From Rhizaria sp. SCN 62-66 (lineage: Eukaryota): 63,426 nt of DNA. The notes beneath the pieces were generated by a model. It was not told the origin of the DNA, did no database searches, and worked only from the letters and a program-made list of their open reading frames with translations. Made by a program: the position numbers and the translations under genes. The stretch is from assembly GCA_001724265.1 (NCBI GenBank), contig MEDY01000012.1, positions 186,001-249,426 of the forward strand, in the 5' to 3' direction. Positions 3,704 through 62,373 of the stretch are shown one piece after another (the stretch's first letter is position 1; every line of letters starts with the position of its first letter).

Positions 3704-5243
3704 ATCAGTGGCAAGCTGACTCGCTTAGCGAGTGTTCGTGTCAATCACCAGAGAAGGCCGCAGGTAGAGTTGACGAGATTAGTCAAGCTCGAAAGACTTA
3801 GGTACGCGCTTCGTGAGTTCTATAATAGAACAGAAATACAGGAAGATAACCAAGCAATATTACGTGTGTGTTAGTATACAAGATCACGCATGTAAACGAC
3901 AACGCTATGCATGTCGTGTAAATCGCACATCAGTTGTAAGAAGAGACATAATGTTTTGCAGGCGTGGCGCGACGCGTCTCGTTTGGAAGGCCACTCACAG
4001 AAGCACTTAACGTCCACATTTCAAATTATAATAAAGTGAACACATACTAAATAAAATATGAAATCACACTACAGTACTGGTATCGTTATTTGAAAGAGAC
4101 ACATGCCACACAGCGATGCAGAAATCTCACGCCAGCTCAGACCTGCGCCCAGCACTCTTTTCCGGTTTGCGCATTGCAGTCCGAGATTGCTCTGCTGGTC
4201 GCGCACAACCACACGAATTTACATCGATTCAGACTAAAATTGCATTCAAAGGCTCGAAACCTAGCCGGATAACTTAAAACGTTTCGTGATTATGTCAAAG
4301 CTACAATGTAGAACGCATATATCATTGATGTTTGCATTTCGTTACACGTGCTTCTCCTCGTTACCTGCAACGGAACAACTGCAACAAATGGTCTAACATC
4401 CACGAGTTTGCCAAACAGTACAGTAGCAACATTTCCATATGATTTCATAGTGTTGTGTCAACTGCTATCAGTTACCACGCTGTATTGAGCCACTATGCAA
4501 TGACAACATGACTTGAAGTTTTGTGCAATGAGATCTCTTCATAATATAGAGCATAAACAGCTGATTAATAGATAATAAATTTGTAATTTAGAGCCAGTAT
4601 ATTTACCGGTATTTCTAGAAATTTGCCCTGTTTGATTTAGTAAAATTTGCATTTCAAAAAATACATATAAAAACCAGGTATCATGACTAGCTTTGCGTAC
4701 TAGCTTGCTCATGAGAGGAGTCTTGGCGAAGGGACATGCTGGATGCAACTTGCTGTTCGACCCACCCTTGACCACAGTCATAGCCAGTTGGTGACGGAGC
4801 AAACGAACCCAAATCTTTCAAAGAACTTTATGCGTCTCCACGCTCCTGTATAGCACTGCAAGTGAGCTATCCCGACTGAATCATGTGTGCCTTATGTGGT
4901 TTCATTTGAGAGGATCCTGATATTCGCGCGTGATCTCCGCGCTATCTCGCGCTGCCAGCGACCTCAACCGCTGGACATATCTCCTTCGCCCACGTCCCTC
5001 TCACCCCATTTCCCGCTACATGGCCCGCATCATGGCCTATTAAAACAACGCTTAACTATGTATCACCCTCTGAAAACTTCATCGTTTTTTTTTTGTTTGC
5101 AATCGATGCGCACATGCTCTCTCTGACTGTCGCTTTCTACGTGCCCCCTCGCCTCCACTGGCCGTCTCCTCCCTTGTACCCTCGTCATTTCCCTCCGCTT
5201 CCGCGACCGTACCTTTCATCTGCAGCCCCGCGCCTTCTCCAAC

Positions 5244-6661
5244 ATGGCTGACGAGATTATGGACCCCTCCCTGCAGAACATCATCGACTCCAAGACCCTC
5301 CGCTGGGTCTTCGTCGGTGGCAAGGGTGGTGTCGGTAAGACCACCACGAGCTGCTCCCTCGCTGCCCAGCTCGCCAAGCACCGCGAGTCCGTCCTCCTCA
5401 TCTCCACGGACCCCGCGCACAACCTCTCCGACGCCTTCGGCCAGAAGTTCTCCTCCAAGCCCACCCTTGTGCCCGGCTTCGACAACCTCTTTGCCATGGA
5501 GATCAACCCCTCGACCGAGATCTCTGAGGAGCTTGAGAACGCCGAGTCCAAGTCCTTCTTCTCCGAGATCGCCACCTCGATCCCCGGTATCGACGAGGCC
5601 ATGTCTTTTGCCGAGCTCATGAAGCAGGTCCAGTCCATGTCGTACTCGACCATCGTGTTCGACACCGCCCCCACGGGCCACACTCTCCGTCTCCTATCCT
5701 TCCCCACCGTCATCGAGAAGGCATTCGAGAAGATCAACTCGCTTAAGGGCCGCTTCTCCGGCCTCTTCGGCCAGGTCGCCGGCATGCTCGGCATGGGCAA
5801 CCAGGACGAGTCGTTCATGGGCAAGCTCGAGGAGATCCAGACCTCAGTGCGCCAGATCAACGCGCACTTCCAGAACCCTGAGGTGACGACCTTCGTCTGC
5901 GTCTGCATTCCCGAGTTCCTCTCCCTCTTCGAGACTGAGCGGTATGTAACTCTTGCTTGCATTTATTAACAGAACCTCACACGTTATATCATATGTTGCT
6001 ACTTGAGGTCCTTCCTGGACCACCACATGCCCACCTTGTTTGTCGATGCCAAAAAACACTACCTTACAACATTTCACGAAGCCAACATCTCACTCTTCTT
6101 ATGCCATTTTCTCTTTTGTTCCTCGTAACTGCAAGTACAGTCTTGTCCAGGAGCTCACCGGCTTCGGCATCGAGACGTCCAACATCGTCGTCAACCAGGT
6201 GCTGTATCCCGACGATGGCGCTGAGTGCCGTAAGTGCGCGGCCCGCCAGCGCATGCAGGGCAAGTACCTCGACCAGATCGACGCGCTCTACAGCGATTTC
6301 CACGTTGTCAAGATGCCCATGCTCGACGAGGAGGTCCGCGGCCAGGTACGTCGCGCTCCCAAGCTCTTCCACTCAAACGACCAAACTTAGCAGGCTCTAA
6401 TATGAACATGCTCTCATGTGTGACTACATGTCAAGCAATCATGCAGTCCAAATGATGTTTCATTCTCTGTAACACTTTAAGGAACGCTTCTGGTTATAAA
6501 TTTCTATCACTATGCTCACATATGTCTTCTTAACTCGTTGTCTCTGGCTGTTTCACTCACAGGATTCCCTGCTCAAGTTCGGCGGCATGCTCGCCTCCGG
6601 CATTCCCGACAAGTATGCCCTCACCGACGCCACCGAGCTCGCCAAGATCAAGCGCTGCTAA
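5244..6661 (+). CDS. GET3: Get3/ASNA1/TRC40 ArsA-family ATPase; exons 5244-5941, 6141-6345, 6563-6661
   Basis: [11 protein letters not shown]-loop, [29 protein letters not shown] and CxxC (CRKC). GT-AG introns restore the frame; TAA stop. Confidence 0.96.
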
Positions 6662-7311
6662 GTGCGACGCTGCTCTGCGCATGCTCGCAGGATGAGAACT
6701 AAGCTCTGCTGAGAGAGGCATGCGCGCGTGTGGACGTGTTTGTGGTGGTTTAACTTTCTTTACTCAAGCTCAAGTGCTTGGACTAAAGTCGTGCTATCGT
6801 CGTGGTTTTGGAGTTGTTGTTGTTGGAGTTGCTTTTGTGCGGAAAATTACATGGCGTTACGTATTAACAAAGTTAGCATGATCAAAAAAAGAAGAAATTA
6901 TTAATACAACTGTGACTAATGTTTTGTTTTCAACTGTCACAACTACGGTAATGTCACCAACTCGAGAGTTTTTGATGCATCGATCTTTGAATAGATATTT
7001 GAATATAAAGTATCACTATGTATCGCCACACTCACTACTTGTGACGCGGTGTTGTTTACGGGTGGTAATCAAGTTGTTCATCCATCAACTCACTTCACGA
7101 CACGTGGAGTTCACTCAGTCATGTAGATCTGATATAGTACCACCAATTTAAAAAATTCAAGAGGTATTACCATCAAACAATGAAACAAACGTTGTTAGTT
7201 CAACAACAAAAAATAGTCCCCACATATATCAAGCCCTACAATATCATTTACAAAGCACTGTGAAACATGTTCCGTGGCACTACGGAAACACTCATAAGTC
7301 GGCTGACAAGC

Positions 7312-10212
7312 TTAAGACGACGGAGACATGACATCCTTAGCAGCGGTTGCGCCAGCCCGACGCCCAAACACGACACACTCCGCGAGCGAGTTGCCACCGA
7401 GCCGATTGCGGCCGTGCAGCCCGCCCGAGGCCTCGCCGCACGCGAACAGGCCCTTGATGGGCTCGAGCGCGTGGCGAGATGCGCCAGTCACGCTGGGGGC
7501 GCGGAGAGCGCGCGCGTTGGTGTCGATCATAATCCCTCCCATTGTGTAATGAAGTGAGGGAGTCACGATCGCAACGGCCCACTCCGAGGGGGCGCTCGCA
7601 TCGCCGTTGATGGCATAGGGGGAGTATGTGTCAGCGAAGGGAAACGTGCGCTTGCCAAAGTTCTCACTGTCATCATTCGCAACACTACTATTCGAGCGCG
7701 AGTAAGACAGAAGGCTGGAGTGCAGTCCAGCGGCGGCCACAAGCCACTGCGGATAGCTGTCACTGTCACCTTCGCTGCCACTGTCGCTGTCACTAGAACT
7801 CTTGGTCTCACTCTCTGCATTGTTCTTGATCTTCTTCGTGTCAGCAATGGTAATGCCTGACATCTTCACAGCAGAGCAGAACAGACGCGCGGCCAACACC
7901 GAGCTCTTCTCACTGCTGCTCCGAGTGAGCTTCGCCCACTGTGCAGCAAACTTCCGAATCTCAGCGTCAACAGCGTTGCTGTGCCCACAGTCACTCAAAA
8001 TGACGCCCCACGCGCCCATGTCAGTACTGTCGACATCCTTGTTGCTGACAAGAGTGAACAGTCCCTTGGATGCGTAGAACTTTGCCGGACCAACGCCAAA
8101 CTCACGGACAGAAGCCGGGGAAAGCAGCAACGCCGCGGTGTGCGTCGAACGCGCGTAGATACGAGAGGACACGTGGTCACGAGTGCTGGAGATGATGAAA
8201 AAATAACATGTGAACAGATTTGCGGTTAGCTAATCGTATAATACTGTTTAGCTTGCTGCTGGAAATAGACCATTAGGTTTCGATGATATAAGACAGAGTT
8301 GGTTCCAAGGTCGTGCTTGAGCGTACCTAAGCTCGTTCACAAACCGCTTACCGGTCGTGAGATCAGCTAACACGCCGCCAACACCGCGCAGCGCCTCGGG
8401 GGCGAGGAACTTGGTCATCGCGTCGCGATCAGAGGGCATCACAAAGCCGGTGGGGTGAACCTGGACGTGGTTCATGCCGGTCAGCGCGGCGCCGATTTCC
8501 TTCATTTGAGGACAAAAGCAACGAATATGATAAGATAAAAACAAGGTTCAGCAATGACAATTCGTTATAGCATGCACTACACATGATCAGTTAGCGAGCG
8601 GTTTATGCAATTTCATGTTGCAATTATGAACAGAGGCATCGCAAACAAATACGCACCTCAGCGATATCGAGGCCATCGCCTGTGGCCCACGGTCCGTTTG
8701 TCGTGGGCAAGTTAAGCTTTGCCAGCTGGGGATTCCACCTCTGTAGCTGCTTCGTTGATGCAGCAAAGCCACCTGACGCCATGATGACCACCCTTGCGTG
8801 AATCAAATGCTTGCCAGCCTTAGCACCACTCGCGGCCGCCGTGGCAGCATCCTTGGACTTTGCAACATTCTCGTACCAAATGCCCTGCACGCCCCCGCGG
8901 CAGACCTTTTGACCTGCAGCACCGTCCACATCGGCGTTGACGTTAGCGCAAGCGATACCGGTGACGCGCACGCCAGTCGCGACGGTCACCATCGCAGCGT
9001 ACTTGCCGTCTTTGGCCGCGAGCGCAGCCTTGAGCCCCGCAGTGACCGCAAAGCCGACGGGTGGGGTCAGGCCCCTGGCGTCCGGTCCGGGCCGGTGCGT
9101 GCGCGCGGCGCTGTGCCCGCCGAGCGCGGTGAGCTTGGCCAGCGGCGCGACGCCGTGCTACTCGAGGAAGGCAACAGCGGCCGCGCTGTCCGTCACCAGC
9201 GCGGAGACCAGGACGCGCATGCTCGCGGGCACTGCGGAGTCGCCCGCATTGCTGGCAGCGCCCGTGCTAGTCGCCGTGACGACCGCAGGGTCCGAGTAGG
9301 CCAGACCGAAGTTGTCGTGGCTCTCGGCCCCGCTGTTGTCGCTCGTGCTCGCATGTGTGCTGCCGACGTTGTCAGCGTTGCTCGCGCACGACGCAAGCGT
9401 GTCCTTCACAAACAGCTCAACACTGTCGCCCTGAGCCCCACCGAGGCCTTTGTAGTACTCGATCTGCACGGGCGTGCCGACGGCGTTCTGTCCCGACGAC
9501 GCCTTCGCAGAGTTGCCGCCCAGCGCGGACTCCTTCTCCAGCAGAATGACCGTGGGCAGCCCAGCGGCACGCGCGGCGGCGGGGGACGCCGTGGCGGCCG
9601 CGGTGTCAATGCCGGAGGCGGCTGCAAGAGAAAGAGCGGTGTCGACGAGCTCGATGGCGGCCGAGAGGCCGGCGAGACCACCGCCGACGATGACTGGCGG
9701 AGGGGAGAAGTAGAAGATATGAAGGATATGACAATATGAAAGGCACGAATCATAAAGATAGGGAGCAATAAAAAACACAATTCACCTTAATGTCGTAACC
9801 ACTTCGATCAACGACAACTCACATATCCATAATAATGGTCGATTTCGAGGCAGAGCTGAAGATCACTCTTTAATGACTCTAACGTACCCACGCAAGAGGA
9901 GTCTTGAGGACACTTAACGTCGCCAGTCTGCTCTTCAAAAGCAAGAACAACGTTTTTGTTAGCGTTACCACCCGTGACAGTCGCAGCAGACGCAGCACCA
10001 GAGGTTGCGGTCACCGTGAGCGGCACCGCTGACGCAGCCGCAGAAAGCAGGCTGGCTGTGGCGGCAGCGACTGACTTGGCTGCTGCGGCGGAGGAGCTCG
10101 ACTATGAGAGACTGAGCAAAGTCCACGCAACACCTGAGATGCCAATGATAAAGGACACCACCGCGATCCACCCAGAGACACGTTGCCGCTCGTTTGTATG
10201 AGCTGGCGGCAT
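7312..10212 (-). CDS. Osm1/Frd1-like FAD-dependent fumarate reductase with N-terminal hydrophobic anchor; exons 10212-9888, 9693-8657, 8499-8327, 8185-7312; two in-frame TAG codons
   Basis: Motifs VVIVGGGLAGLSAA (formed across a splice junction), LGGNSAKASSG, LGGHSAARTHR, TTNGPWATGDG, VQVHPTG, LAPEALRGVGG, RFVNEL, LHYTMGG and GLHGRNRLGGNSLAECVVFG. TAG at 10104-10102 and 9160-9158; TAA stop. Confidence 0.9.
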
Positions 10213-11022
10213 CTGTGACTCGAAGGACGCATCAAGTTGGAGGGGACGTTGACAGAAATAGAGATATTGAGCTCAAAGCAGCTTGCTAACAAGAGTAATA
10301 TTATGGTATAATCTCAGACAGGTATTAAATCCATGGCATTCAGCTGCAGCGAGTTTAACGGTCGCTGCGATGAAATATTGCTTCTGCTAAATCTGCTAGC
10401 AGACTCATTCATGATAGTGGTTGTCATCATAGTCACGCCGCTGAGGAGATGCTGAGTCATGCGCGAAAATGACTCTACAGAGACTCAAAACGAATTGGAA
10501 GCAACGAGAATACAGCTTGGTATACAATTATCTTGCAAAGGGAGATGATTAAAGACTTTAATGAGTGTATTCGTGTCCGCCCACTGTGTTCAACGCAGTA
10601 TGTGACTTGGAAAGAATTATGAACAACGAACAGGGAAGTGGCGGATGCGATGAGTAAAGAAGCACAAACAATTAGCGCTGAGGAGTGTGTCATGTCAGAA
10701 TAGCAATAACATGCGTCATCTACAGAACAATTTCATTGTCGACCTGCATCCATGCGCATGCGATTGCAGTCCATGTTCAATGTTCAGAATGTACACTCTG
10801 GCTGATTGTGAGTGCCAAATTTAAAGCTAAGTACGATGAAATAGGAGTTCAAAAGGTATCAAAACAAAAAGCGGAACAAAAAAAAATGAAAAGAAATAAT
10901 ATGAATGAGTTAACTATCCACAGTTGAATGACAGCGTCTCAAATAACAATCGGGAGACATAATCTTTCTTTCTGAAGTATCACACCAACACAAAGCATGA
11001 AATCGGTGCTTGTGTTGTTAAT

Positions 11023-14000
11023 TTACGCGCGGGGATCAAAGATGAGCTTGTAGTTCCTCTGCGTCCTCTTCTTAAGCACAATCTTCCACATCTCGGCATA
11101 GTTGCCGTCCGCCGCGCCCGCTCCTGCCCCTGATCCATCGACCGCGGCGTTGGAGCCGTCGCCGAGGCCGGGCGACTCGATCGCGGGCGAGTTGTTCACG
11201 ATGCCGCCGGAGTTGCCCGAGCTGGTGCGCTGCGCGGAGTAGGCCTGCATGGCGCGCGTGAGGGCGTCGCGCTCGGCCGAGTCGAGCTCGAGCGCGTCGG
11301 GCGTGCCGCCGGGGTGTGTATAACGCGCCACGAAGGCCTCGAGCAGCAATGCGACGACAACGTTCATAAGCACCACAACGGTGCAAAAGAAGAAGCAGAC
11401 GAAGAAGACGCGCGGCCAGTGCGCCTTCATGGCGACTGTGAAGCCTTCGACGGTGAGGTTCCAGTTGTTGATGATCTGGATCTCGAACAGCGTGACGAGC
11501 GCGTGCGTCAAGTCGTTGAAGTTGTTCTCCCAGTAGTTGTTGTTGGCGTAGTACGTCTTCATGAAGTCCTCGTCCATCTTGCCCTGTGCGATGAGGTTGC
11601 GGAACAGGAAGATGCCGAGCATGGCAAAGAAGTAGAAGCAGCCGAAGAGAATCATCGCCAGGGTGCGGAGCGCGGGCCACACGCCCTTGACCGTGCTGAT
11701 GATCGCGCGCAGGCCGGCGAACCGCAGCAAGTGCCGGATGATGCGGAACACGCGCAGTAGCGGCAAGTCCCACAGTCGCGGGTTCACGGCTGCGCCGCCG
11801 GCTTTCGCGAGGCCCAGGACGACGCTGGCCGTGACCACGCAGAGGTCGAGCTTGGAGACGAGTCCGAGCCCCCAGTAGCGACTAGGTCCGTACGAGTACA
11901 TCTTCAGCACCATCTCGACCACGTACCAGCCCAGCAGCACGGCGCCGACGGCGTCGAGCACCTTGGGCCGCGGCAGCACGCCCTCGAGGTGCAGCGTGAT
12001 ATACACCGCGTGCACCACCACGACCGCGTCGATGCAGGCCTCGAAGGCAGAGAGGCGGACCACGTGGCGCACGCGGCGCCGCGCCGCGCCGCAGACCTGG
12101 TCGTCGGTCGACCGGTGCTTGCGGTGACCGTGCGCGGCCAGGACCAGGTCCCTGCTGTTGTTGCTGTTCGGATCACTACTGATGTTGCCGCTGCGAACGC
12201 CCGCCGTGGCGTACGGCGGGACGGGAGTCTGCGCGTTGCGACGACCGGTGATGGAGCTACTCTTGCTGTTGAGAGTTGTGACCGTGTTCGCGTTGACGGC
12301 CGAAACGACGCGGGGAAGCGCGTTGCCGCCGTTGCCGGCCGGCGCGTTGTTGCCGCCACGGCCGTCTTTGGCATACGAGAGCGCGTTCACCAAGCCTCCG
12401 TCGCCGGTGCCGCTACCATCCGCGATCTCGGCGCCCAGGGCCCCGACCCCGTTGTTGCAGTGGTGGTAGCGGCCGCCGCCGACGTAGCTCGAGCTCGCGG
12501 ACAGCGACGACGGCGACGGCGAGGGTGACGAGTCGCGTAAGTACCCGCCCGTGTAAGGGGCTCCCGACGACGTGTAGGTGTCCGTGCCCGCAGTCACCTG
12601 TACCGACCGGTCATCACCACCAGTTGCATTCACAGTAGTCGCAGAGCCATTCGCGGCGGCAGCGGCGGCGGCGGCAGTGCCGGCGGCGTCTGCGGCTGCG
12701 AGCACCGAGGTGTGCTTGGGCACGCGCGAGCTGCGGATGCGGCTTGAGTTCAGAACAACAGGAGCGTTGATATCACCGCCACCCGCAGTCTTCGTAGCCG
12801 CACTCACAATGTCGGTCTTGGACTCAGCGTTTGCGCTAGCGTTGCTGCCGTGAGCGGGGGCCCAGGGCGAGGCGAAGTGGGCGGTGCCGCCAACAACACG
12901 CGTCGGGTTCGCGCTCGCGTCATCGGTGTTGCCGACATCAGCACTGTCGTCAACTTGCTTTTGGTATCCGTCGTGCTGCTTTTGCTTCTGCTTCTGTTTC
13001 TTCGACTGAGTCTGCTGTGCCTGCTGTTGGTCGCGCCCCTGACTCTGCTGAGTCTGCTGAGACTGCTGCTGAGACTGCTGCTGAGACCGCTGCTGCTGCG
13101 ACGGCGGCGGCGGAGGGCGGTGCTGCTGCCTGAACTGCACGTCGATGTAGTCGCAGAGTCGCACCCACTCCCTGGCATCGAGCGAGCCGGTGTGCGTGAT
13201 GTCCATAGCGTTGAAGATGATGTCGATCTGCTCAACCGTCAGCGTCGGCCGCACGTAGCGCAGGAAGCGGTGGAACAGCGGCTTCGTGATGCGCGCATGC
13301 GCCAAGTAATCGAGCTCTAGGATGCTGTCCGGCGACGTTAGCGCTCTCGAGTCCAGGAACGTGCGCAGGATCGCGTTGGAGCCGTGGGCGGCGCTGAGGC
13401 TGGCGAGGTTTCTGCTGTCGCCGACGCTGTTGCTCTCGGCGGCGGCGCCCGCGTCGGGCGCGGGCAGCGCTTGCAGCTCGGAGACCGCGACGCCCTTGTT
13501 CTTAGCGGCGCTGCGCGTCTTGGATTTGCCGTTCTTGCTCTTGGAGCCGCTCTGAGCGATGGGGCTCGTGTCCAAAGACAAGCCGTGGATGCCGACAACA
13601 CGGACGCCGGCGTCGACGGCGGCCTCGGCGCCGTGGGACATGAGAGGGCTGTTGTTGCTGGAGCTGCGGAGCGAGCCCGCGAGGCCCTGGCCCAGCCTCA
13701 TGCCGAAGCCGGGCAGCGCGACGCCGGCGACAGCGCCGGTGGCAATGCCGTTGCTGTTGTTGATGCTGATGCCGTTGCGAGCAATAATCGCGAGGTCATC
13801 ATCATCATCGTCCTCATCATCATCCTCGTCTTCGTCGCTATCGTGCTCGCTGCCGCAGCCACAGTTGCCGCTGCTGGTGTCGCAGTCGCATTCCCCGTTG
13901 CAGTTCTTGCCCGCCGGCTGTGGACTCGATGGGCTGTTACTGAGTGCAGACCTCGGAGTCTTGTTGGCACCGCGGCGCCTGACCCCGCCGCTGCTCGCAG

Positions 14001-16374
14001 TCGCATCGTTGTTGCCGCCGTCCGGACCGATATTGCCGGAGTTCGCGACAACACCGTTCACACTGTGCCTGCGGCTGCCGCCGCGACTGCCGCTGCCGCC
14101 GATGCCGTACGCGTTGCTGTTGTTGACCGCCGCGGCCGTGGCGGCAAGCGCAGCGGCGGTGACGGAGCCCGAGCGCAGTGACCGCACGACGGCCCGGTGC
14201 TCGAGCAGCGTCGACTCGGTCTGCAGCAGCGACCACTGGTGCTTCTTGGCCGCGATCGCGTTGGCCGCGTTCGCGGACGTCGTGCTCACAGTCAGGCCCA
14301 ACCCGCCCGCGGCGCCGTTGCCGCTGCCGGGACTGCTGCTGTTGTGGCTGCTGGCGCGGGCCAGCAGCGGCGGGAGGCCGCCGCCTGCGATCGCCGCCGC
14401 AGACTTGCCGATCGAGCCAGCCTTCACGCCAACGCCTTGGCCGCCGCTGCCGTTGTACTGCTTGCCGTTGGCGCCGGCCTTGCCAGCCGGGGCGGGGTTG
14501 TAGAGCCCCGGCTGCAGTAAGCCGGCGTCGTCGTCGCCGCCGTCTTCGTTAGCGTTGGGCGCGTTCGTGCTGTTGTTCGCGGCTCGCTGGTTATACGAGA
14601 CCGACACCCCGCGGCCGCGGTCGAGGTAAGCGCGGCCCTTGGCCTTGGCCTCTGCCTCGCCGTGGCGCACGGCTTCCTCGGCGGCGAGCGCGCAGGCCTG
14701 GGGGTCGGACAGCACGAGGAGCTCGAACGCGGCGCACAGACACATCGTCTGGATCTTGGGCACCTCGGCCACGATGTCCTGCGCGCGCTCCTGGAAGCGC
14801 GTGTACACGGCGGCGAGAATGAGGTTGAACATGAGGTAGAGCGCGATGAGCAGGTAGATGATGAAGTAGAGCGCGGTCCAGTTAGCAGCCGAGTACGAGT
14901 CCATCATGACATCGGGGAAGTTGGCCGTGGTGAGCAGGATCGTCATCGAGTACGCACTGATTTCGAAGTTCTCGAAGTTCGGGTTCGGCCCGATGGCAAG
15001 CGCGTTCTTGCTGAAAAGGAAGAAACCCAGGAAGGCGAACGAGAGAATGGTGACAGCGATGAGCGTGACGACCTCGAAGACGGAGGAGAAGGTGTGTGCG
15101 ATGACCGTGACCATCTTGCGCAACACGCGCCCGCGCTCAATCATGAAGAAGGGCCGGATTAGCCGCGACACGCGCACGTTGGAATCGTGGTACGCGGGAA
15201 CTGTGAGCCACACGGCCATGTCGGCGAGCGTCAGGACAATGGCCAGCACCTGCGCCGACGCCCAGGTCGGCGCGGCGCACACGCGGGCGGAACAGAGAGA
15301 CGGACAGAGCGGACGAGCCACCTCGGGGTCGTGGCAGAAAGCCCAGAGCCGGGCCTCGACAAGCAGAAAGAACAGGATGCCAAGCTCGAGGTACGTCATG
15401 GCCTGGCGCAGCGCGTGCGAGTCTGCGTACTCGAACAGGCCGATGCACATGTGCACCGCGGCCAGGGACGCGCCCAGGCGGCGCCACCAGCGGTTGTGTA
15501 GCATGTCGTACACCGCCAGCGGCGACGGGCCGGGGTACATCGAGGTGGACGCGTACGTGGCTGCGCCGCCGCTCTCGTCCTCGTCATCGTACTGGTAGGC
15601 GTAGTTCGAGCTCTGCTGCTGGGGCCCGCTGCTGCTGTTGATCGGGGCCGGTGCGCAGCCGTCGTCGCTCATGGCAACGTATTCATGCGACGAAGCCCCA
15701 TTGCTGTGATCGCCAAACATCGCGTCGCCGCTCTTCACAATCGCGTTCGCGCTCTTGCCGCTCGGGTTGGCTCTTCCGCCACCGTTGCCGGTCTGGGGCA
15801 GAAACACACTTGGCATCGCGTGGCCCGTACCAGCGCCGCCAACAGCGGCACTAGTGCGAGGATCAGAGCTGTGGTTCATCGCGCTCTGGATGCCCAGGTT
15901 GTTGATGCTGCTGCTGTCGTTGACCGCGGTTCTGCAGGCCGCCGCGCTCGCGATCCGGCGCCGCGACGCGCAGCAGGGAAACAGCGTGCCCTCCTCTTGC
16001 ACACGCACCTGCGGTGGCCGGCCTTTGACGGCGTCAATCAAGTACGTCCGCGCGACGCGCAGGTGCTTCGGAACGGGCTCTCTCGCGTCGCCGCCGTCGC
16101 CGTGGGCGGTGTTGGTCTCGGCGCTGCCGTAGTCCTCCCCGTCATAGGGCGCCTCCTCATGGACGACTACAAGCTCTTCAATGCCGCCCGAGAACACGTC
16201 GGGGGAGAGCGGGGAAAAGAGCCCGTTGATGTCCTCCTCGGTATCGTTGTCGTAGACGTAGTTGGTCGCGTTGGGGTCCGTAATGCGGTACACCGAGGCC
16301 TGAGTGGGGAATGTAAAGCTGTTGCTGCTGGGACGAGCCGGGCGGGCCGCACCGGCGTTGCGCAGGATCGGCAT
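11023..16374 (-). CDS. TPC: Two-pore channel (TPC), single exon, 1783 aa, very long low-complexity linker with an EF-hand-like motif
   Basis: Two 6-TM repeats. Pore 1 ILLTTANFPDVMM and pore 2 TLFEIQIINNW; S4-like RVSRLIRP and LRVFRIIR; DITHTGSLDAREW loop in the linker; TAA stop. Confidence 0.92.
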   Translation of the reverse strand: MPILRNAGAARPARPSSNSFTFPTQASVYRITDPNATNYVYDNDTEEDINGLFSPLSPDVFSGGIEELVVVHEEAPYDGEDYGSAETNTAHGDGGDAREPVPKHLRVARTYLIDAVKGRPPQVRVQEEGTLFPCCASRRRIASAAACRTAVNDSSSINNLGIQSAMNHSSDPRTSAAVGGAGTGHAMPSVFLPQTGNGGGRANPSGKSANAIVKSGDAMFGDHSNGASSHEYVAMSDDGCAPAPINSSSGPQQQSSNYAYQYDDEDESGGAATYASTSMYPGPSPLAVYDMLHNRWWRRLGASLAAVHMCIGLFEYADSHALRQAMTYLELGILFFLLVEARLWAFCHDPEVARPLCPSLCSARVCAAPTWASAQVLAIVLTLADMAVWLTVPAYHDSNVRVSRLIRPFFMIERGRVLRKMVTVIAHTFSSVFEVVTLIAVTILSFAFLGFFLFSKNALAIGPNPNFENFEISAYSMTILLTTANFPDVMMDSYSAANWTALYFIIYLLIALYLMFNLILAAVYTRFQERAQDIVAEVPKIQTMCLCAAFELLVLSDPQACALAAEEAVRHGEAEAKAKGRAYLDRGRGVSVSYNQRAANNSTNAPNANEDGGDDDAGLLQPGLYNPAPAGKAGANGKQYNGSGGQGVGVKAGSIGKSAAAIAGGGLPPLLARASSHNSSSPGSGNGAAGGLGLTVSTTSANAANAIAAKKHQWSLLQTESTLLEHRAVVRSLRSGSVTAAALAATAAAVNNSNAYGIGGSGSRGGSRRHSVNGVVANSGNIGPDGGNNDATASSGGVRRRGANKTPRSALSNSPSSPQPAGKNCNGECDCDTSSGNCGCGSEHDSDEDEDDDEDDDDDDLAIIARNGISINNSNGIATGAVAGVALPGFGMRLGQGLAGSLRSSSNNSPLMSHGAEAAVDAGVRVVGIHGLSLDTSPIAQSGSKSKNGKSKTRSAAKNKGVAVSELQALPAPDAGAAAESNSVGDSRNLASLSAAHGSNAILRTFLDSRALTSPDSILELDYLAHARITKPLFHRFLRYVRPTLTVEQIDIIFNAMDITHTGSLDAREWVRLCDYIDVQFRQQHRPPPPPSQQQRSQQQSQQQSQQTQQSQGRDQQQAQQTQSKKQKQKQKQHDGYQKQVDDSADVGNTDDASANPTRVVGGTAHFASPWAPAHGSNASANAESKTDIVSAATKTAGGGDINAPVVLNSSRIRSSRVPKHTSVLAAADAAGTAAAAAAAANGSATTVNATGGDDRSVQVTAGTDTYTSSGAPYTGGYLRDSSPSPSPSSLSASSSYVGGGRYHHCNNGVGALGAEIADGSGTGDGGLVNALSYAKDGRGGNNAPAGNGGNALPRVVSAVNANTVTTLNSKSSSITGRRNAQTPVPPYATAGVRSGNISSDPNSNNSRDLVLAAHGHRKHRSTDDQVCGAARRRVRHVVRLSAFEACIDAVVVVHAVYITLHLEGVLPRPKVLDAVGAVLLGWYVVEMVLKMYSYGPSRYWGLGLVSKLDLCVVTASVVLGLAKAGGAAVNPRLWDLPLLRVFRIIRHLLRFAGLRAIISTVKGVWPALRTLAMILFGCFYFFAMLGIFLFRNLIAQGKMDEDFMKTYYANNNYWENNFNDLTHALVTLFEIQIINNWNLTVEGFTVAMKAHWPRVFFVCFFFCTVVVLMNVVVALLLEAFVARYTHPGGTPDALELDSAERDALTRAMQAYSAQRTSSGNSGGIVNNSPAIESPGLGDGSNAAVDGSGAGAGAADGNYAEMWKIVLKKRTQRNYKLIFDPRA

Positions 16375-17871
16375 CGGTACAGGCGCACGGGCAGCTCACT
16401 GATGACGACCGTGGTGCAAGTGTCTGAACGATTTACTGATAGTGAACGGCGTGCGCGCGAGGCGCAGGGCAGGATGAAAGGTGTTGGGCGCGGAAGATCT
16501 CTGGTTGAGAAAAACCTAGGACGTTCTCGAGACAACCAAGGTTTCTGGATGGCAGCATAGCACGGGGCAGCAATTATAATACACGTTGTTTACGAAAAAT
16601 GAGTTTGAGATTCGCCAATCAATGAGGAATATCGTAGCCGATGGGAGGAGAGATGCCGAAGCAGCGACAGGAGTGTGCTCAGCTCGACCGCACAGCGCGA
16701 TGCCGTTAGCAGACATAACGAGAATCTAAATGCTTCTTGATTTGACTCACAGGTAGTACACATCATGTTCAACATGATATACAAGTTTCAACGCATCTTA
16801 ACGAATTTGCGAGGCACAGGGGAGTATAACTCCACGGCCTTCGCTCACTGCAGCCTCTCGCCGCCACGTAGCACTCCAGATGCCGAGGAAAAGAACTAAA
16901 ACAGAACATTCGGCATGTCTGAAGTGAAGTTAATCAATGCCCTTAGGTTTAAATTCTTGTCATGCCACACGTCCATAGTGGTTCTGCTTGGTACCACTTG
17001 AATATTTAACATGCCAAAACATATCATATACTCAAGAGTCTACGATTTGACCTGCACCAGTGTAAGAGACAAGTATGATTGATACACAGCAAGATGTTGC
17101 TTATATAACATCATATGATTTCCATACGCTTTACTAAGTGTTTTTTAACACGTTGACCTATGTTTCTAAGATGTGATGTGTCAACATGAGTGCATCTATG
17201 CCACGTAGGATCATTGGTGAGGACTGGACACTTCACGCCAAGTCATGTGTTTGAGTCAGGATTAAGCTCCCTCGTTGCCATCGCTGAACATATACAACAA
17301 AATCACAACCTATAGATAATGAAGTACATGGTGTACCATCTCCAAGTAACCCTACCTACTTTAAGCGACCTTAAAGTGTCATAATGAAACAACTTTCCTG
17401 ATATAACAACGCAAAAGATCATATCCTGCTATGGAATATTAATTGCCATAGTTAAGCGTGCAAGTTAAATAACATATCCTTGTTTAATATAAGTCCATCA
17501 ACGATTCAAGTCACAAAGTACCAAACAATATCGTTTTGGCTGCTGCAGTCAAAGCCAATGCCCGACTGGCCAGCAAAGCAAACGGCTCAGACTAGAAACT
17601 CTGAGAGTCTACCATGCGCCACAAATCCGTCATGACGAACTCAACACCAATGATTGATTCACCCCTATATAACAGAATGCGATATTAAAATTGTGTCACA
17701 GGAAACCTTCACTATATTCTTCTGTGATCTCATTTCTCATTGAACGGTTACTCTCTCCTCGTTCCCTTCCTCGATCGCTCTCTCCACCAGCTTTCCTCTC
17801 TCCCAAGCACTCAGACAAGCACACCACTATCTGTAAACTACACCCACGAGGAGGGTTTTTCACCGCCTTTA

Positions 17872-23309: not shown

Positions 23310-24845
23310 ATGAAGTCATTCAAGAATACCGCGTTGTGTGTCGGTGTTAACGTTGACACTGTCATCGACGTTGTATGCGAAGGCGAACGCACCGGTGGCA
23401 TCTTTCGCGAGCCTAGCTTCCCCGCCACTTCTGACTTTGACAAACGCCCTAACGTCAAGAAGCCGAGCGACAAGAAGGCGACCGCTAAGCAGTCCAGGGC
23501 TAACGAAGGCGAAAGAAACAGCTATTGGACGCCTGAACTTCGCGCCGAGTTTCTGACTATGCAGGGCATCGGCGTGACCCCTGAAGAGCAAGCGGCCGCA
23601 AGGGAGGCTGATCGTGTCCGGAAGGAGAAGGAGGAGGCGGAGCATCGGGCCAAAATGACGCCTGAGGAGCGCGCCGAGACTGACACACGGCAGGCAACGC
23701 GCGATGCACAACAGAAAGTTGTCGACGATGCTGTGCAAGTTGCGCTGCGGGCGCGCGCGCGTAATCTAGCGGCCGCAGCAGCCGCCCACAAGAGCGCTGA
23801 CACTCCAAGCACGAGCGGTCGGAGTCGCCGCAATAGCAGCACGAGCAGTAGCAGCAGCCTTGCCAACGCGACTGAGAGCGCTGCTGACGTGAAAGAGATC
23901 GACGACAACACGCATATCGACACCAACATCCGCGTGAGTCCGGGGGGCTTCCTCCAGATCGGCGACTACCCCTACGAAGGCGTATTGCTGCTCACCGACG
24001 TCGACCACCCGGCGGAGCTCTACGCGCCGCTTGTGACGCGCATTTGGTGGCCGGCGGACATGCCGATGCCCGAGATGCGCCCGCGCCCGCTTGTGGGCAG
24101 GGGGCTGCGGCTCTCATTTATGTTCGCAGTTTGCCGCCGCGGGCTCTTCTGCTTCAAGCTCAAGGACGGCGCCTTCAACGGCGACGACTTCCTCGAGTGG
24201 GCGTAGCAGTTCGAAGACGAGGCGCACACGGTCTTCCCCACGCTGCCTGAGGCGCCGACGCTGCTGCTGGACAACACGCGCATGTTCACCGCGGAGGCGG
24301 AGTGCGTGATTGAGTCCGGCGGCGCCCGTGTGCTGCGCACCGGCAAGTACACGGTACCCGCGCCGCCGACGCGCGGCCGCGGCGTCAATTTGGTTGCGAA
24401 CATCGAGAAGAAGCTTAAGAACAAAGGAGTCGTGTACCTCGACCGCGCCGCGCTCAAGACAGCGATGTGCGAGGCGTACGAGGAGGTCAAGGCCAACGCC
24501 GAGAAGGAGTTCGACTTCAGCGAGATCATCGACCACCAGTTGCGCGCGTGCCATGACGGCATCCAGAAGGACATGTTCTACCGGCCGATGACGGAGGCGA
24601 TGTCCACGCACGCCGTCGGAATCCGCAAGGGGTACATTCAGGTGTGGGTCGACATGAGCCTCGACGACAGCAGCGGTGACCGCGGCAGCGGCAGTGCGGG
24701 CCGTGGTCGCGGGCGCGGGCGCGGTCGTGGTCGCGGCCGTGGCAGCAGCCGCGGCGGGGCCGCGAGGGCGGGCGCTGGGTCGAGGCAGAAGCGTTCCAAG
24801 CCTGACTTCGATCTCGACAGCTATATCAGTGACGATGATGAATGA
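23310..24845 (+). CDS. Tc1/mariner-IS630 (DDE_3-like) transposase-derived protein with in-frame TAG at 24204-24206 and C-terminal RG repeats
   Basis: ORFs 23310-24206 and 24282-24845 share a frame and join through the TAG. RGLRLSFMFAVCRRG...GAFNGDDFLEWA*QF...LLLDNTRMF...GARVLR follows the DDE_3 pattern, but the PPYSPDLNPIE motif is degenerate. TGA stop. Confidence 0.65.
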
Positions 24846-37416: not shown

Positions 37417-39870
37417 ATGCCGGATAACACCCAGGCGCCTTCAGACGGTACGTGTATAGCAACAGCACGAACGCAACCGCGTGTATCTGACTTTTATCTT
37501 CTGCTCTACTTGCTTTGATTTGGATCCGCGACTATCTTGCCTTTAAAACGCACGCTAAGATAAGCCACTCTCTGTCTAATCAGTATCACACACACACTCA
37601 CTAACATGCATCGTGATCGTACTCTTTCTCATTCTATTATCCTGGTCGTGGTCATTCATGTTGTTTCATGTCCCCTCGTAGATTTGTTTGTGGCCCGCTC
37701 CGACAGCTACACGCTGCTCTCCGAGCTGGGCGCGGGCGCGACGTGCAAGGTCTACCGCGCGACGGCCACGCTCAAGGACGGCTCCACGGCCCCCGTGGCC
37801 GTCAAGGTCATGGACCTCAGCCAGACGGACGACTGGGACATGGTCTTCAAGGAGGTCTCGCTCATGCGCGGCATGAAGCACGAGAACCTGGTCAACATCA
37901 TCACGTGCTTCTGTGAGGGCGAGCAGCTCTGGATCGTCATGCCGCTGCTCTCCGCGGGCTCCATCCGCTCCGTGATGCAGGTCCTTGCGCCCAACGGCTT
38001 CACCAACGAGGGCGTCATTGCGAGCATCCTGGCGGGCGCGCTGGCCGGGCTGGTGTACATGCACAAGCACTCGTACATCCACCGCGACGTCAAGGCCGGC
38101 AACATCCTCCTCTCCAGCTCCGGCTCGCCCAAGCTGGCTGACTTTGGCGTCGCCGCGACGACGACGAGCTACGGCACCACGAAGCGCCACGCCCACACCT
38201 TCACGGGCACGCCCTGCTGGATGGCGCCTGAGGTCATCTCGCAGGACCAGGTACGTTCGCAACAAACAACAAAACGTGATATATATCCATCAAACCAAAG
38301 ACTCACTATCACATAAGCTGCAATTATAGTGCGTTTGTGCTGTGTTCCATCACTGTGTTAAATACTACTGTCGTAACATAACTTAATCTCATTTCACTTT
38401 GGTCATTCCTATTTTTCAACCTAACACCCTTGTTGTTGGTAACAGGACGGCTACAACACCGCCGCCGACATCTGGTCGCTGGGCATCACGGCGATGGAGC
38501 TGGCCTTCGGGCACCCGCCCTACGCCAAGATGCTGCCGCTCAAGGCCATGATGGCGACGATGGACTCAGACCCGCCGACTCCGGAAGTGTACAATGAGCC
38601 CGCACGCGTCAAGGAGATGAGCAAGGACTTCCGCAAGTTCATCGCGCGCACGATGCAGAAGGACCCCGCCAAGCGGCCCACGGCGGCCGAGCTGGTGTCC
38701 GACCCCTTCATCAAGAAGGCCCACGGCGCTGAGTACCTCGCCGAGCATCTCATCGCCAAGTACGTCTTCGTTGCACCAGCCGTAGCAATGACTTGCAGAA
38801 CACGAATGAATGTGTTTGACGTCGTATATACTTACTGGAGAAACACTGACATATGTGCCTGTATTGAATAATTTTAATATGTGTATGTGTTTTGCGTGTG
38901 ATCGGAGCCTAAATGTCTTAAATCCTATCAATACCTCACATTTCTGACACTTTTCTTTGCTTTGCATCCTGTCCCCAGGCTCCCCAGCGCGCATCTGAAC
39001 CCCGAGGTCAAGGGCGCACCGATCCAGCTCCCCACTGCGCCCAAGGCGACCGCGGATGACGCTAACGGCAGCAACGGCTCCGGCTTCTTCTTCGAGGACT
39101 TCCAGGCCGCTCGCGAGCAGCTGCTCAAGCAGCAGCAGGCGGCGCAGCAGGCGCAACCCGCCGCCGGCGGCGCTGCCGGTGACGCCGCGGCGTCGGCGGC
39201 GGCGTCGCCCGCGCAGGGCGCCGCAGGCGTCAGCGCCGCGGGCGCGGGCGCGGACGTGGCGACGACGCAGGCGATGCTGCAGCAGATGCAGATCAGCCCT
39301 CAGCAGCAGCAGATGCAGCAGCAGCAGCAGCTGTTGTTACAACAACAACAGCAGCAGCAGGCGCAGCTGCAGGCCCAAGCGCAGGCGCAGGCTCAGCAGG
39401 ATGCATACAACCAGCAGCAGCAGCAGTTGCTTCTTCAGCAGCAGCAACAGCAGCAGCAGCAGATGCTCCTGCTTCAGCAACAGCAGCAGCAGCAGCTCCA
39501 GCAGCAGCAGCAGCAGGATCCCGCCCTTGCGCTCCAGCAGCAGCAGTTGCTGTTGCAGCAGCAGCAACAGCAGCAGTACCTTGCGCAGCAGCAGGCCCAG
39601 CAGCAGGCGCAGCAGCAGCAGCAGCAGCTGTGCATCGACCCGTCGATGCTGGAGAAGGCCGGCGCGGCGATGGGCCAGATCCAGACGCAGCTGACGGCGC
39701 TGGCCGAGCGCGTGGCCACGACTACGGACCCCAACGAGCTCGCGATGCTGCAGCAGCACATCTCGCTGCTCCAGCAGCAGCTGCAGACGCACCAGAACGC
39801 GCTCCAGCTGCAGCTCCAGATCGCGGCGCAGCAGCAGCAGCTGCAGATGCTGCAGGCGCAGCAGTATGCG

Positions 39871-39903
<33 letters not shown>

Positions 39904-39962
39904 GTGCAACAGCAGCAGCTGACGCCGCAGCAGATCCAGTATCTGCAGCAGCAGCAGATGCT

Positions 39963-39998
<36 letters not shown>

Positions 39999-40011
39999 CC
40001 AGCAGCAGTAA
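37417..40011 (+). CDS. STE20-family (OSR1/SPAK/Fray-like) Ser/Thr kinase with polyQ tail; exons 37417-37447, 37682-38250, 38446-38759, 38979-40011
   Basis: GAGATCKV, VAVK, HRDVKAGNILL, LADFG, TFTGTPCWMAPE, DIWSLGITAMELAFGHPPY; TAA stop. The start is uncertain because an upstream acceptor lies at 37402. Confidence 0.88.
39301..40008 (+). repeat. CAG-rich coding repeat (polyglutamine)
   Basis: Many CAG runs with occasional CAA, in the kinase frame. Confidence 0.95.
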
Positions 40012-60186: not shown

Positions 60187-62373
60187 TTAGAACGAGGACA
60201 CGCTGCCAAGCACAACAGCGAGGCGGAAACCCGTACTCTCAGTATCTCTCCAGATGGGCGACGGTGACAGTCCGACGCCGCCAGCGCCACCGCTGCCCAC
60301 GGTCGCTCCGTCAGCCCGGCTCACAGTCATCACGTCGCCGCCACTGCTTGCAGTCAGCCCTTGCGCGTGACTGTTGCCGATTGGAGTAGGCTCAGCCCCG
60401 CGGCCGGGCTTCCCGGTGACGCTCTCGCTCTGCGCAGGCAGCGGCGGGAAAGCGTGGTTCAGCCGTGAATCGCAGGCCCAGGACTTGGTGAAGCCGGCCT
60501 CGAGTCCCCACAGCCGGCTCGGGGAGTGCGAGCGTAGCATCGCGCTGAGCGAGCGGTCCGGGGTCGAGGCGACGCGCAGCGAGTGGAGCCACTCCCACTG
60601 CGACGGCGACTATGACAGCGTTTGGACCGGAAGGGATTGTGACTGTGCTGCGTTGCCACGGCTGCTCGCCGGCACGAACGGCGCGAGAAGACTCATAACC
60701 GTGTTCGTCACCGTGCTCTGCGCCGCAGTCAGCACACCGACGGCGTCGCTGGTTGTTCCTGTGGCGGCGGCACCGAAGTCGAGCCGCGACTCGGTCGTGA
60801 GCAGCGAGGCGTGCACGACGCAGGCCGCGGCCACGGACGCCTGCGGCGACCACTGCTGCGGCTGACCGTGGGCAGCAGCGGGGCTGTGGGCGGGCTGGAA
60901 CAGCGGGGCAGTGACGCCGAGAGAGAGCGTTCCAACGCCGTTGACAACGAACGACGTCGTGTACGGAATCGGGGGTGGCGCAGCGAACAAAACAGCACCA
61001 TGGCCACCGCTGCTCGCGATAACATCGCTGCAGGCAACAGAGGCGGCGGTGTTGCTCTTAAGACTAGGACTAGAGCTAGAGCGTGTCGGAGCGAACCACC
61101 CGAGCACCGTCCTGACCGCGCCCGCGACGGCCGCGGCGGCGGCGTCGCCTTTGTGCTGCGGGACCGTGGCCACGGCGGCAAGCGAGAACGAGTCGTCGCC
61201 CGACTTGGGGCTGATCAGGTACTCGATGCCGGTGTCGAGCGTGACGGCGCCGCGACCGACGCCGCCCACAGTCACGGAGCTCACGGTCGCTGACTGTGAG
61301 CGCGAGCTAGATGACTGTGAGTCGCAGCCTGCTGTGGCATTCTGACTGTCATTGGTTAAATGGAAGCGTTTTGCAGCCATAACGCCCCATAACGAGCCAT
61401 CTGAGCAATATTTAACGCCAACACTGCTCTGTTTGCAGTCATACCGCGCCTCAGCGCCCCAGATCTCTGGTGCAGAGAAAGGCATCGCGCTCGCACTCTT
61501 CGACGCATCCTTCGCTGCAGCATTATTCGCATTCCCAGCATTATCGTTCCCATTGGCGTTGATCGCTGCAGTGTTACCGTCAAGACCACTGCGGGGGTTC
61601 ACAGGATTGCTGTTGCTGTCGCCGACGCTCTTGCTCATCACAGCGCATTGCCTACTCGGGGTGAGCGTAAGCGCGCTCGGCAGCAGCGCCGGCGGCTGCG
61701 ACGTGACGGCAAACCCGCGCACCGTAAGCCAGGGCGTCACGCGCGCCTCCAACTCAACGTCACTCACGCCGTCCGCGTCGGTGCTCGCTTTGACGACCAC
61801 GGCGGCACGCTGCCGGTGTGGGCGGCGCTGCGTCATCACTGAGTAGCACTCCAAAGACGCGGGCTCGGTGTGCGCGCCGTACACCGCAGCGCCGGCGCTG
61901 TCGTGGGAGGAGTTGCTAGGAGTGATCGGCGAGCAAGAGTCGAAAACGACGCCACTTGAACCACTGTTGATTGCTGTGCCCGTGTTTGTGGTACCATTGC
62001 GCGAAGGCAGCGGAGCAGGGCCGCTGAAGTACCCCACCTCGATGGCACGCGCACGCTCAGTCGTGAACGCAGAAGATAAAGCGTTCGTGAGCGCGTTAAA
62101 CGGCGATGTCGCGGTTGCATTCGAGGTGCCAGTTGAGCTTCCAGTTGCAACGGAAGCAGAGGAGGCATAGAGGCGTGAGAGCTCAACAGTTGCGTCAGCG
62201 CGAGCCTCGACGACCGCGGCGCGGTCTGAATACACGGCAACACGCAATGCAGTCGTGTTTGAGGGCTGCGAGGAAATTGACAGGATGTCGTCAGTGTGTG
62301 CGCGAAAGTATGCTAAGTCACCGGGGTTGTCTGGGCTCACTGGAGCGACGTAAGAGCCGGACAGCGCCTGCAT
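60187..62373 (-). CDS. Divergent Tom40/eukaryotic-porin-like beta-barrel with expanded loops; in-frame TAG at 60612-60610
   Basis: ORFs 60610-62373 and 60187-60540 share a frame and join through the TAG. N-terminal DNPGDLAYFRAHTDDIL recalls the Tom40 NPG motif; amphipathic strands (WGAEARY, SVGVKY, LDTGIEYLI); terminal FRLAVVLG; TAA stop. Family assignment is tentative. Confidence 0.55.

Follow-up and report, generated by a model that had tools for sequence, protein, structure and literature searches.

An in-frame TAG within the catalytic core of an otherwise intact gene raises two questions: does UAG still end proteins in the organism concerned and, if it does not, which amino acid does it specify? 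Such a codon lies in an Osm1-like fumarate reductase gene on a 63,426-nt stretch of contig MEDY01000012.1 of Rhizaria sp. SCN 62-66 (GCA_001724265.1), hereafter referred to as the window, the relevant features of which are collected in Table 1.

Table 1. Coordinates of the three TAG-bearing genes of the window, their parts and their in-frame TAG codons.
Feature	Position	Strand	Remarks
Osm1-like fumarate reductase gene	7312-10212	minus	4 exons, 802 codons, then TAA
Fumarate reductase exon 1	9888..10212	minus	ATG, hydrophobic anchor, Ala/Ser-rich linker; start modelled
Fumarate reductase, second in-frame TAG (codon 37)	10102..10104	minus	directly behind predicted membrane anchor; common to window, X3 and X4
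Fumarate reductase exon 2	8657..9693	minus	GxGxxG, GGNS, GGHS and PTTNG motifs
Fumarate reductase, in-frame TAG (codon 287)	9158..9160	minus	window letters CTA; second strain CAG (Gln)
Fumarate reductase exon 3	8327..8499	minus	QVHPT, EALRG
Fumarate reductase exon 4	7312..8185	minus	RD of ELxxRD, HYTMGG, HGxNRLGGNSL; TAA end
DDE-transposase-like ORF	23310-24845	plus	DDE_3, E = 0.016, under curated cut-off
DDE-transposase-like ORF, TAG	24204..24206	plus	in frame; same letters in metagenome locus L001
Tom40/Mdm10-like beta-barrel gene	60187..62373	minus	single exon, 728 codons, TAA end
Beta-barrel gene, in-frame TAG (codon 588)	60610..60612	minus	in loop; conserved sequence beyond

The fumarate reductase gene and its two TAG codons

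The four exons of the gene joined in frame across three GT-AG introns of 141–194 nt with a GC content of 0.38–0.40. Exons 2 and 4 matched PF00890 above the cut-off, the best relative of solved structure was yeast fumarate reductase 2 (E = 1e-15), and homologs were 24–41% identical across most of exon 2. In an alignment of the window protein with the 119 non-self matches listed, the GxGxxG FAD motif, GGNS, GGHS, QxHPT, ExxRG, ELxxRD, HYTMGG and NRLGGNSL all fell on homolog-conserved columns. The initial annotation had read the frame as DSAAAVAFLE*HGVAPLAKLTALGGHSAARTHR, with the TAG 12 codons ahead of GGHS and with the downstream catalytic motifs and the splice sites intact, and this description was confirmed throughout: the forward-strand letters CTA give TAG on the minus strand at codon 287, GGHS starts at codon 300, the three introns have GT-AG borders, and QVHPT, EALRG, ELxxRD, HYTMGG, GE and HGxNRLGGNSL occupy homolog-conserved columns behind the TAG. 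The FAD-binding and catalytic motifs are shared with Osm1/Frd1 and the flavin domain of flavocytochrome c3 (PF00890; PDB 5GLG, 6KU6, 1D4C), whereas the window enzyme differs from these proteins in its long Ala/Ser-rich insertions (802 codons versus about 470–600), in being without a heme domain and in its two TAG codons. The hydrophobic stretch ahead of TAG37 was also present at the N-terminus of 49 of 117 homologs, and no in-frame ATG occurred between TAG37 and the FAD-binding motif. With both TAGs translated, the product would be a full-length, membrane-anchored enzyme of the soluble type. The start at 10212 is modelled, and a further short exon ahead of it could be contributed by an upstream frame at 10213–10460 (minus strand), which ends in M-D-L-I-P and has a weak GT.

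For a comparison of strains, four runs were placed on positions 5000–10500 of the window. Run X3, which comes from another study, was identical to the window over 7508–10345 (0 differences over 2,838 nt, both TAGs included), and the TAG is therefore no sequencing or assembly error. Run X4, from a third study, contained a strain less than 1% different from the window, in which 9160 A>G turns codon 287 into CAG (Gln; a single contig of depth 7.4, with the site 33 nt short of its end). Reads giving CAG had been named beforehand as grounds for dropping the TAG; the X4 strain does give CAG, whereas X3 gives TAG. TAG37 was kept in X4, where the piece covering 9612–10500 differed from the window only at 9991, 10111 and 10147, all of them synonymous. 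Across the exons (pieces listed), X4 and the window were separated by 8 synonymous and 2 replacement changes plus the TAG/CAG site, in line with the earlier claim that the gene is not a pseudogene, and pN/pS for the whole gene was 0.086, with roughly 505 synonymous and 1,472 replacement sites compared (P = 0.0005 under neutrality). Downstream of TAG37 the changes numbered 6 synonymous against 2 replacement (neutral expectation, P = 0.005; P = 0.011 with TAG/CAG scored as a replacement), which is not expected had an ancestral gene carrying this shared TAG ended at codon 37. The X4 pieces holding codons 37 and 287 are unjoined (gap 9193–9611), recombination could decouple the two sites, and contigs conceal heterozygosity; TAG in the window with CAG in X4 fits a synonymous pair and also a recent nonsense allele. 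Run X4 also contained low-depth contigs at 5261–5546, 6131–6662 and 8188–8322, about 82–89% alike and with introns at like places, which come from a related species sampled by that run.

Splicing offers little escape from the TAGs. The modelled introns of the window were 119–224 nt long with a GC content of at most 0.44 (n = 20, two of which match RNA joints in run X5). As previously asserted, no splice signal was found that would remove TAG287: within 120 nt there were 14 in-frame candidates, every one with a GC content of 0.56–0.80 and a donor score below 0. Even the best candidates removing TAG287 or the TAGs of the beta-barrel and transposase-like genes had a GC content of at least 0.56 and weak sites, and an intron spanning any of these three codons was rejected. 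TAG37 scored 8.3 as an acceptor, within the range of the modelled acceptors and equalled by 30 of 402 exonic AGs. The donors upstream of it reached at best 0.4 within 450 nt and 3.4 within 1,000 nt, introns from the best donors within 1,000 nt had a GC content of 0.42–0.54, and the 36 codons before TAG37 behaved as coding sequence (hydrophobic anchor, two synonymous strain differences). These scores carry some blur, as at least two modelled introns looked mis-chosen in the first scoring, where introns were chosen partly by consensus, and 2 of 20 training introns were misplaced by at least one base in the second (1,000 nt). With no good donor upstream and a coding-like stretch in front, an intron ending at TAG37 is unlikely, and we consider a splice escape at this codon improbable.

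None of the RNA-run pieces listed spans a TAG. Spliced pieces of GET3 in run X5 show that the organism is transcribed there, and among the pieces listed for this run one of 234 nt fell on exon 4 of the fumarate reductase gene; run X9 contributed one near-identical piece of 151 nt on GET3, and eight runs with small word shares were taken as no evidence. The missing RNA cover of the TAG sites is no evidence of gene silence.

TAG codons and gene ends across the window

A codon-score scan followed by manual curation yielded 22 genes or gene parts with 13,906 codons, which contained four internal TAG, no TAA and no TGA, in frames picked to be open to TAA and TGA. The TAGs were spread over three of the 22 genes, two of which have conserved sequence downstream of the TAG. 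Among 20 gene ends, 12 were TAA, 8 were TGA and none was TAG. Of the stop triplets in AT-rich non-coding DNA, 22% are TAG, a share at which its absence from all 20 ends has P = 0.007 (P = 0.015 for the 17 ends left when the three TAG genes are excluded). The weight of this comparison is modest, as protists with the standard code can almost do without UAG stops: at a UAG share of 4%, the level of a standard-code fornicate, P = 0.44. TAG accounted for 4 of 659 Gln-or-TAG codons (0.6%) and was the rarest codon (TAG 4, ATA 8, AGA 13, TTA 17). All four TAGs were located in genes with a GC3 of 0.71–0.78, the coding DNA ranging from 0.64 to 0.94; the ratio of TAG to CAA was 4:63 in low-GC3 and 0:28 in high-GC3 genes (Fisher P = 0.32), and one rule for both is possible. 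A random nonsense change would create TAG in about 70% of cases here, four TAGs out of four then having P = 0.23–0.28, and such a TAG would derive from CAG more often than from any other codon (46% with the transition bias set to 3). No tRNA gene was found in the window.

The codon context TCA-TAG-TCG is common to the TAGs at 10102–10104 and 60610–60612, which lie in unrelated genes, and may be a coincidence of Ser-rich sequence or mark a preferred context for read-through. Among the other genes, a Ste20-like kinase (38902–40011, plus strand) with a poly-Gln end tract contained 145 Gln codons (134 CAG, 11 CAA) and no TAG, and two intronless genes of about 1,600–1,800 codons with long low-complexity insertions resembled a Castor/Pollux-like channel (53925–59012, plus strand) and a two-domain ion channel (11023–16395, minus strand).

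The beta-barrel protein is divergent, with long insertions and no Pfam match, and its sole full-length relative among 1.84 billion representatives was P0364, an ortholog 45% identical to it; a search of the whole protein library returned four proteins, namely two pieces of the same gene, the full-length P0364 and one other. Identity to P0364 extended over 195 of 414 columns ahead of the TAG and 42 of 106 (40%) behind it, with matching C-termini, and the GC content was 0.71 behind the TAG and 0.37 behind the TAA. P0364 itself resembles TOM40/MDM10 clusters in features (0.93–0.94) and in predicted fold (low-confidence model).

The TAG of the transposase-like ORF is a weak witness, as the element may be decayed. 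A query with this ORF in the metagenome collection found a single copy, which is the same locus (1 of 4 loci, 2.8 kb), and no match in viral contigs. No clear terminal inverted repeats were seen, and the window held no interspersed repeat fit as a probe. An acidic tail stays in frame for 22 codons beyond the TGA of this ORF.

Residue assignment and competing explanations

Taken together, UAG is likely a rare sense codon in Rhizaria sp., and overall we put the probability that it is read as glutamine at close to 0.6; granted that it is a sense codon at all, glutamine is the likely residue. UAG would no longer end proteins, and UAA and UGA would stay stops (the NCBI table 15 code). As the rarest sense codon, UAG would arise from CAG by a single C-to-T change, new TAGs would drift and persist only in genes with weak codon bias, and at codon 287 TAG and CAG would be synonymous alleles. 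We would expect eRF1 to have lost or weakened its recognition of UAG, and a Gln-tRNA with a CUA anticodon, or a near-cognate Gln-tRNA, would decode UAG while sparing UAA, a line of reasoning that follows the published argument for ciliates (PMC11687900). Translation through UAG, its residue, the CUA tRNA, the eRF1 change and the lineage are what we infer from the DNA. The rare internal TAGs, the absence of TAG from gene ends and the CAG of the second strain suggest a young genetic-code change. A more specific scenario, an early stop-to-Gln reassignment in which UAG has gone from gene ends, is as yet the rarest sense codon and continues to segregate with CAG among strains, is put forward tentatively.

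Column 287 of the alignment contained Ser in 37 of 119 homologs, followed by Asp (17), Glu (16), Arg (10), Gly (10), Asn (9), Ala (8), Lys (4), Gln (3), Thr (2) and Val, Phe and His (1 each), with neither Leu nor Trp. The polar character expected by the initial annotation was thus found in the column, and support was also obtained for its preference for Gln over Leu, given Leu in 0 of 119 homologs and CAG in the second strain; the strictly hydrophobic column that would have spoken for Leu was not observed. Its view of this codon as the best site for identifying the amino acid did not hold, the column being variable with Gln in 3 of 119. This variable column speaks against Leu and does not name Gln, and taken alone its composition would point to Ser; the assignment to Gln comes from X4, which has CAG at this codon of a gene with few replacement changes. 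No TAG sits on a Gln-conserved column, codon 287 being variable and the barrel TAG lying in a gapped loop. Scoring by neighbouring residues was unstable across window sizes and was discarded for naming the residue: with one neighbour per side Gln came first, and with two or three it fell near the bottom and Ser came first or second.

The alternative that survives best, although unlikely, is that UAG specifies another residue, in the first place Ser and less probably Glu, Lys, Tyr or Leu, in which case the strain with CAG would carry a replacement that the variable site tolerates. Ser leads column 287, ranks high in the wider neighbour scoring and flanks two of the four TAGs in TCA-TAG-TCG, and UAG has been reported as Ser in Scotinosphaera (PMC11687900). 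However, the only alternative letter seen at codon 287 makes CAG, and per site this gene shows about ten times fewer replacements than synonymous changes; the middle position of TCA-x-TCN is most often filled by CAG (3 cases), Ser and Gln occur about equally often between two Ser (2.7% and 1.9%), and Leu is missing from the column.

Quite unlikely is the standard code, under which the TAGs would be nonsense alleles, either in decaying genes or on one allele of a diploid, with TAG37 possibly the acceptor of an unmodelled intron and the X4 gene intact where the window strain has suffered a recent CAG-to-TAG knock-out. This would agree with the predominance of TAG among nonsense changes here and their origin mostly from CAG, with the 19 of 22 genes free of TAG, with the decayed look of the transposase-like carrier and its tail past the TGA, with the acceptor score of TAG37 and with the heterozygosity that contigs conceal. 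It would also demand that 3 of 22 genes were broken, each by TAG, with no TAA, TGA or frameshift among the causes in the frames read, that a mitochondrial-type barrel lost its last strands, and that TAG is missing from 17–20 gene ends by chance; moreover, the donors before TAG37 are weak, and the preceding stretch encodes the anchor with two synonymous differences. Editing of the transcripts (U-to-C to yield CAG, or A-to-I to yield a Trp codon) or local read-through, with UAG a stop elsewhere, is very improbable: it accommodates the rarity of internal TAG, the repeated TCA-TAG-TCG and a CAG allele as the pre-edited form, but the four contexts, that pair aside, share no motif, column 287 contains no Trp, editing leaves the lack of TAG gene ends unexplained, and we know of no nuclear U-to-C editing of stops in protists.

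Relation to known codes and to the host lineage

Reading UAG as glutamine would place the organism with a few described eukaryotes. In the fornicate Iotanema spirale, the published account describes a nuclear code with UAG as Gln and UAA and UGA as stops, 204 UAG codons in 126 genes (about 8% of Gln codons) and a residue fixed by hyperconserved columns (PMC5304391); a change in the GTS motif of its eRF1 has also been reported, as has a share of 4.12% UAG stops in the standard-code fornicate E. mutabile (PMC9161772). The ciliates Hartmannula sinica and Trochilia petrani are described as having UAG as Gln with UAA kept, of recent and independent origins, in genomes of 27–54% GC where UAG makes up 18.5–31.8% of Gln codons and occurs in 78–84% of genes (PMC11687900). 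In the rhizarian exLh (Sainouroidea), UAG is given as Leu; the gene ends of Guttulinopsis are described as nearly all UAA (PMC5304391).

As far as these accounts go, the window resembles Iotanema in having UAG internally, unseen as a terminator at its 20 gene ends, with UAA as the main stop and UAG as a proposed minority Gln codon, and differs in its four TAGs in 22 genes (0.6% versus about 8% of Gln codons). With the two ciliates it shares the proposed code and the retention of UAA, whereas its TAG share is 0.6% against 18.5–31.8% and its coding GC3 is 0.64–0.94. Like exLh, which probably belongs to the same supergroup, it would split UAG from UAA; unlike exLh, it has a column 287 (a single column) with Leu 0, Val 1 and Phe 1 of 119 and a second allele that reads CAG. 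Membership among the users of a table-15-type code, alongside Iotanema, Hartmannula and Trochilia, is probable. The TAG share of 0.6%, far under the known 8–32%, is both the chief doubt and the chief interest of the case, a high UAG share among Gln codons being a trait of the described members and not part of the definition of the code. No report of UAG as Gln in Rhizaria was found in the literature covered, from which subscription papers were largely absent, and UAG as Leu in exLh was the one rhizarian nuclear variant that we found in print (PMC5304391).

The best named full-length matches of the EHD gene were chlorarachniophytes and a Cercozoa-labelled row, and no match was obtained in prokaryote genomes. 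In a quick tree of this one gene, built from 59 of 120 matches (all labelled and the top-ranked unnamed ones), the window was part of a 44-row group (SH-aLRT 97) with Lotharella, Norrisiella and the Cercozoa-labelled row, separate from the animal, fungal and plant rows and from Thecamonas and Blastocystis; an ELP3 search did not settle the lineage. Relatives of the organism were 86–90% identical to it in ELP3 and 73% in EHD. Judged by its sequence, the host is probably a GC-rich, intron-bearing protist of the Rhizaria/Cercozoa. Of the runs containing at least half of the stretch's words, three were labelled bioreactor or wastewater and one was unlabelled.

Overall, a known code in unusually low use has probably turned up in a new lineage. 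Few lineages have been described whose nuclear code treats UAG and UAA differently, and in the published cases compared here UAG was already common. If the early reassignment proposed above is true, this would be the first UAG=Gln code for Rhizaria in the literature covered, in the GC-rich genome of a common, free-living wastewater rhizarian, and it would permit a population-level test of codon-capture versus ambiguous-intermediate models. The onset of a reassignment could then be studied through the extent to which UAG termination is lost, the presence or absence of a dedicated tRNA and the selection acting on new TAG alleles. Reassignments at such low use would be invisible to annotation, as illustrated by the public protein set, in which the fumarate reductase is cut at a TAG (P0002, 206 aa) and the barrel tail downstream of its TAG is split off as a 117-aa protein (P0362). 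The barrel itself would, moreover, be of interest for the distribution of ERMES, as an Mdm10-like protein of a probable rhizarian.
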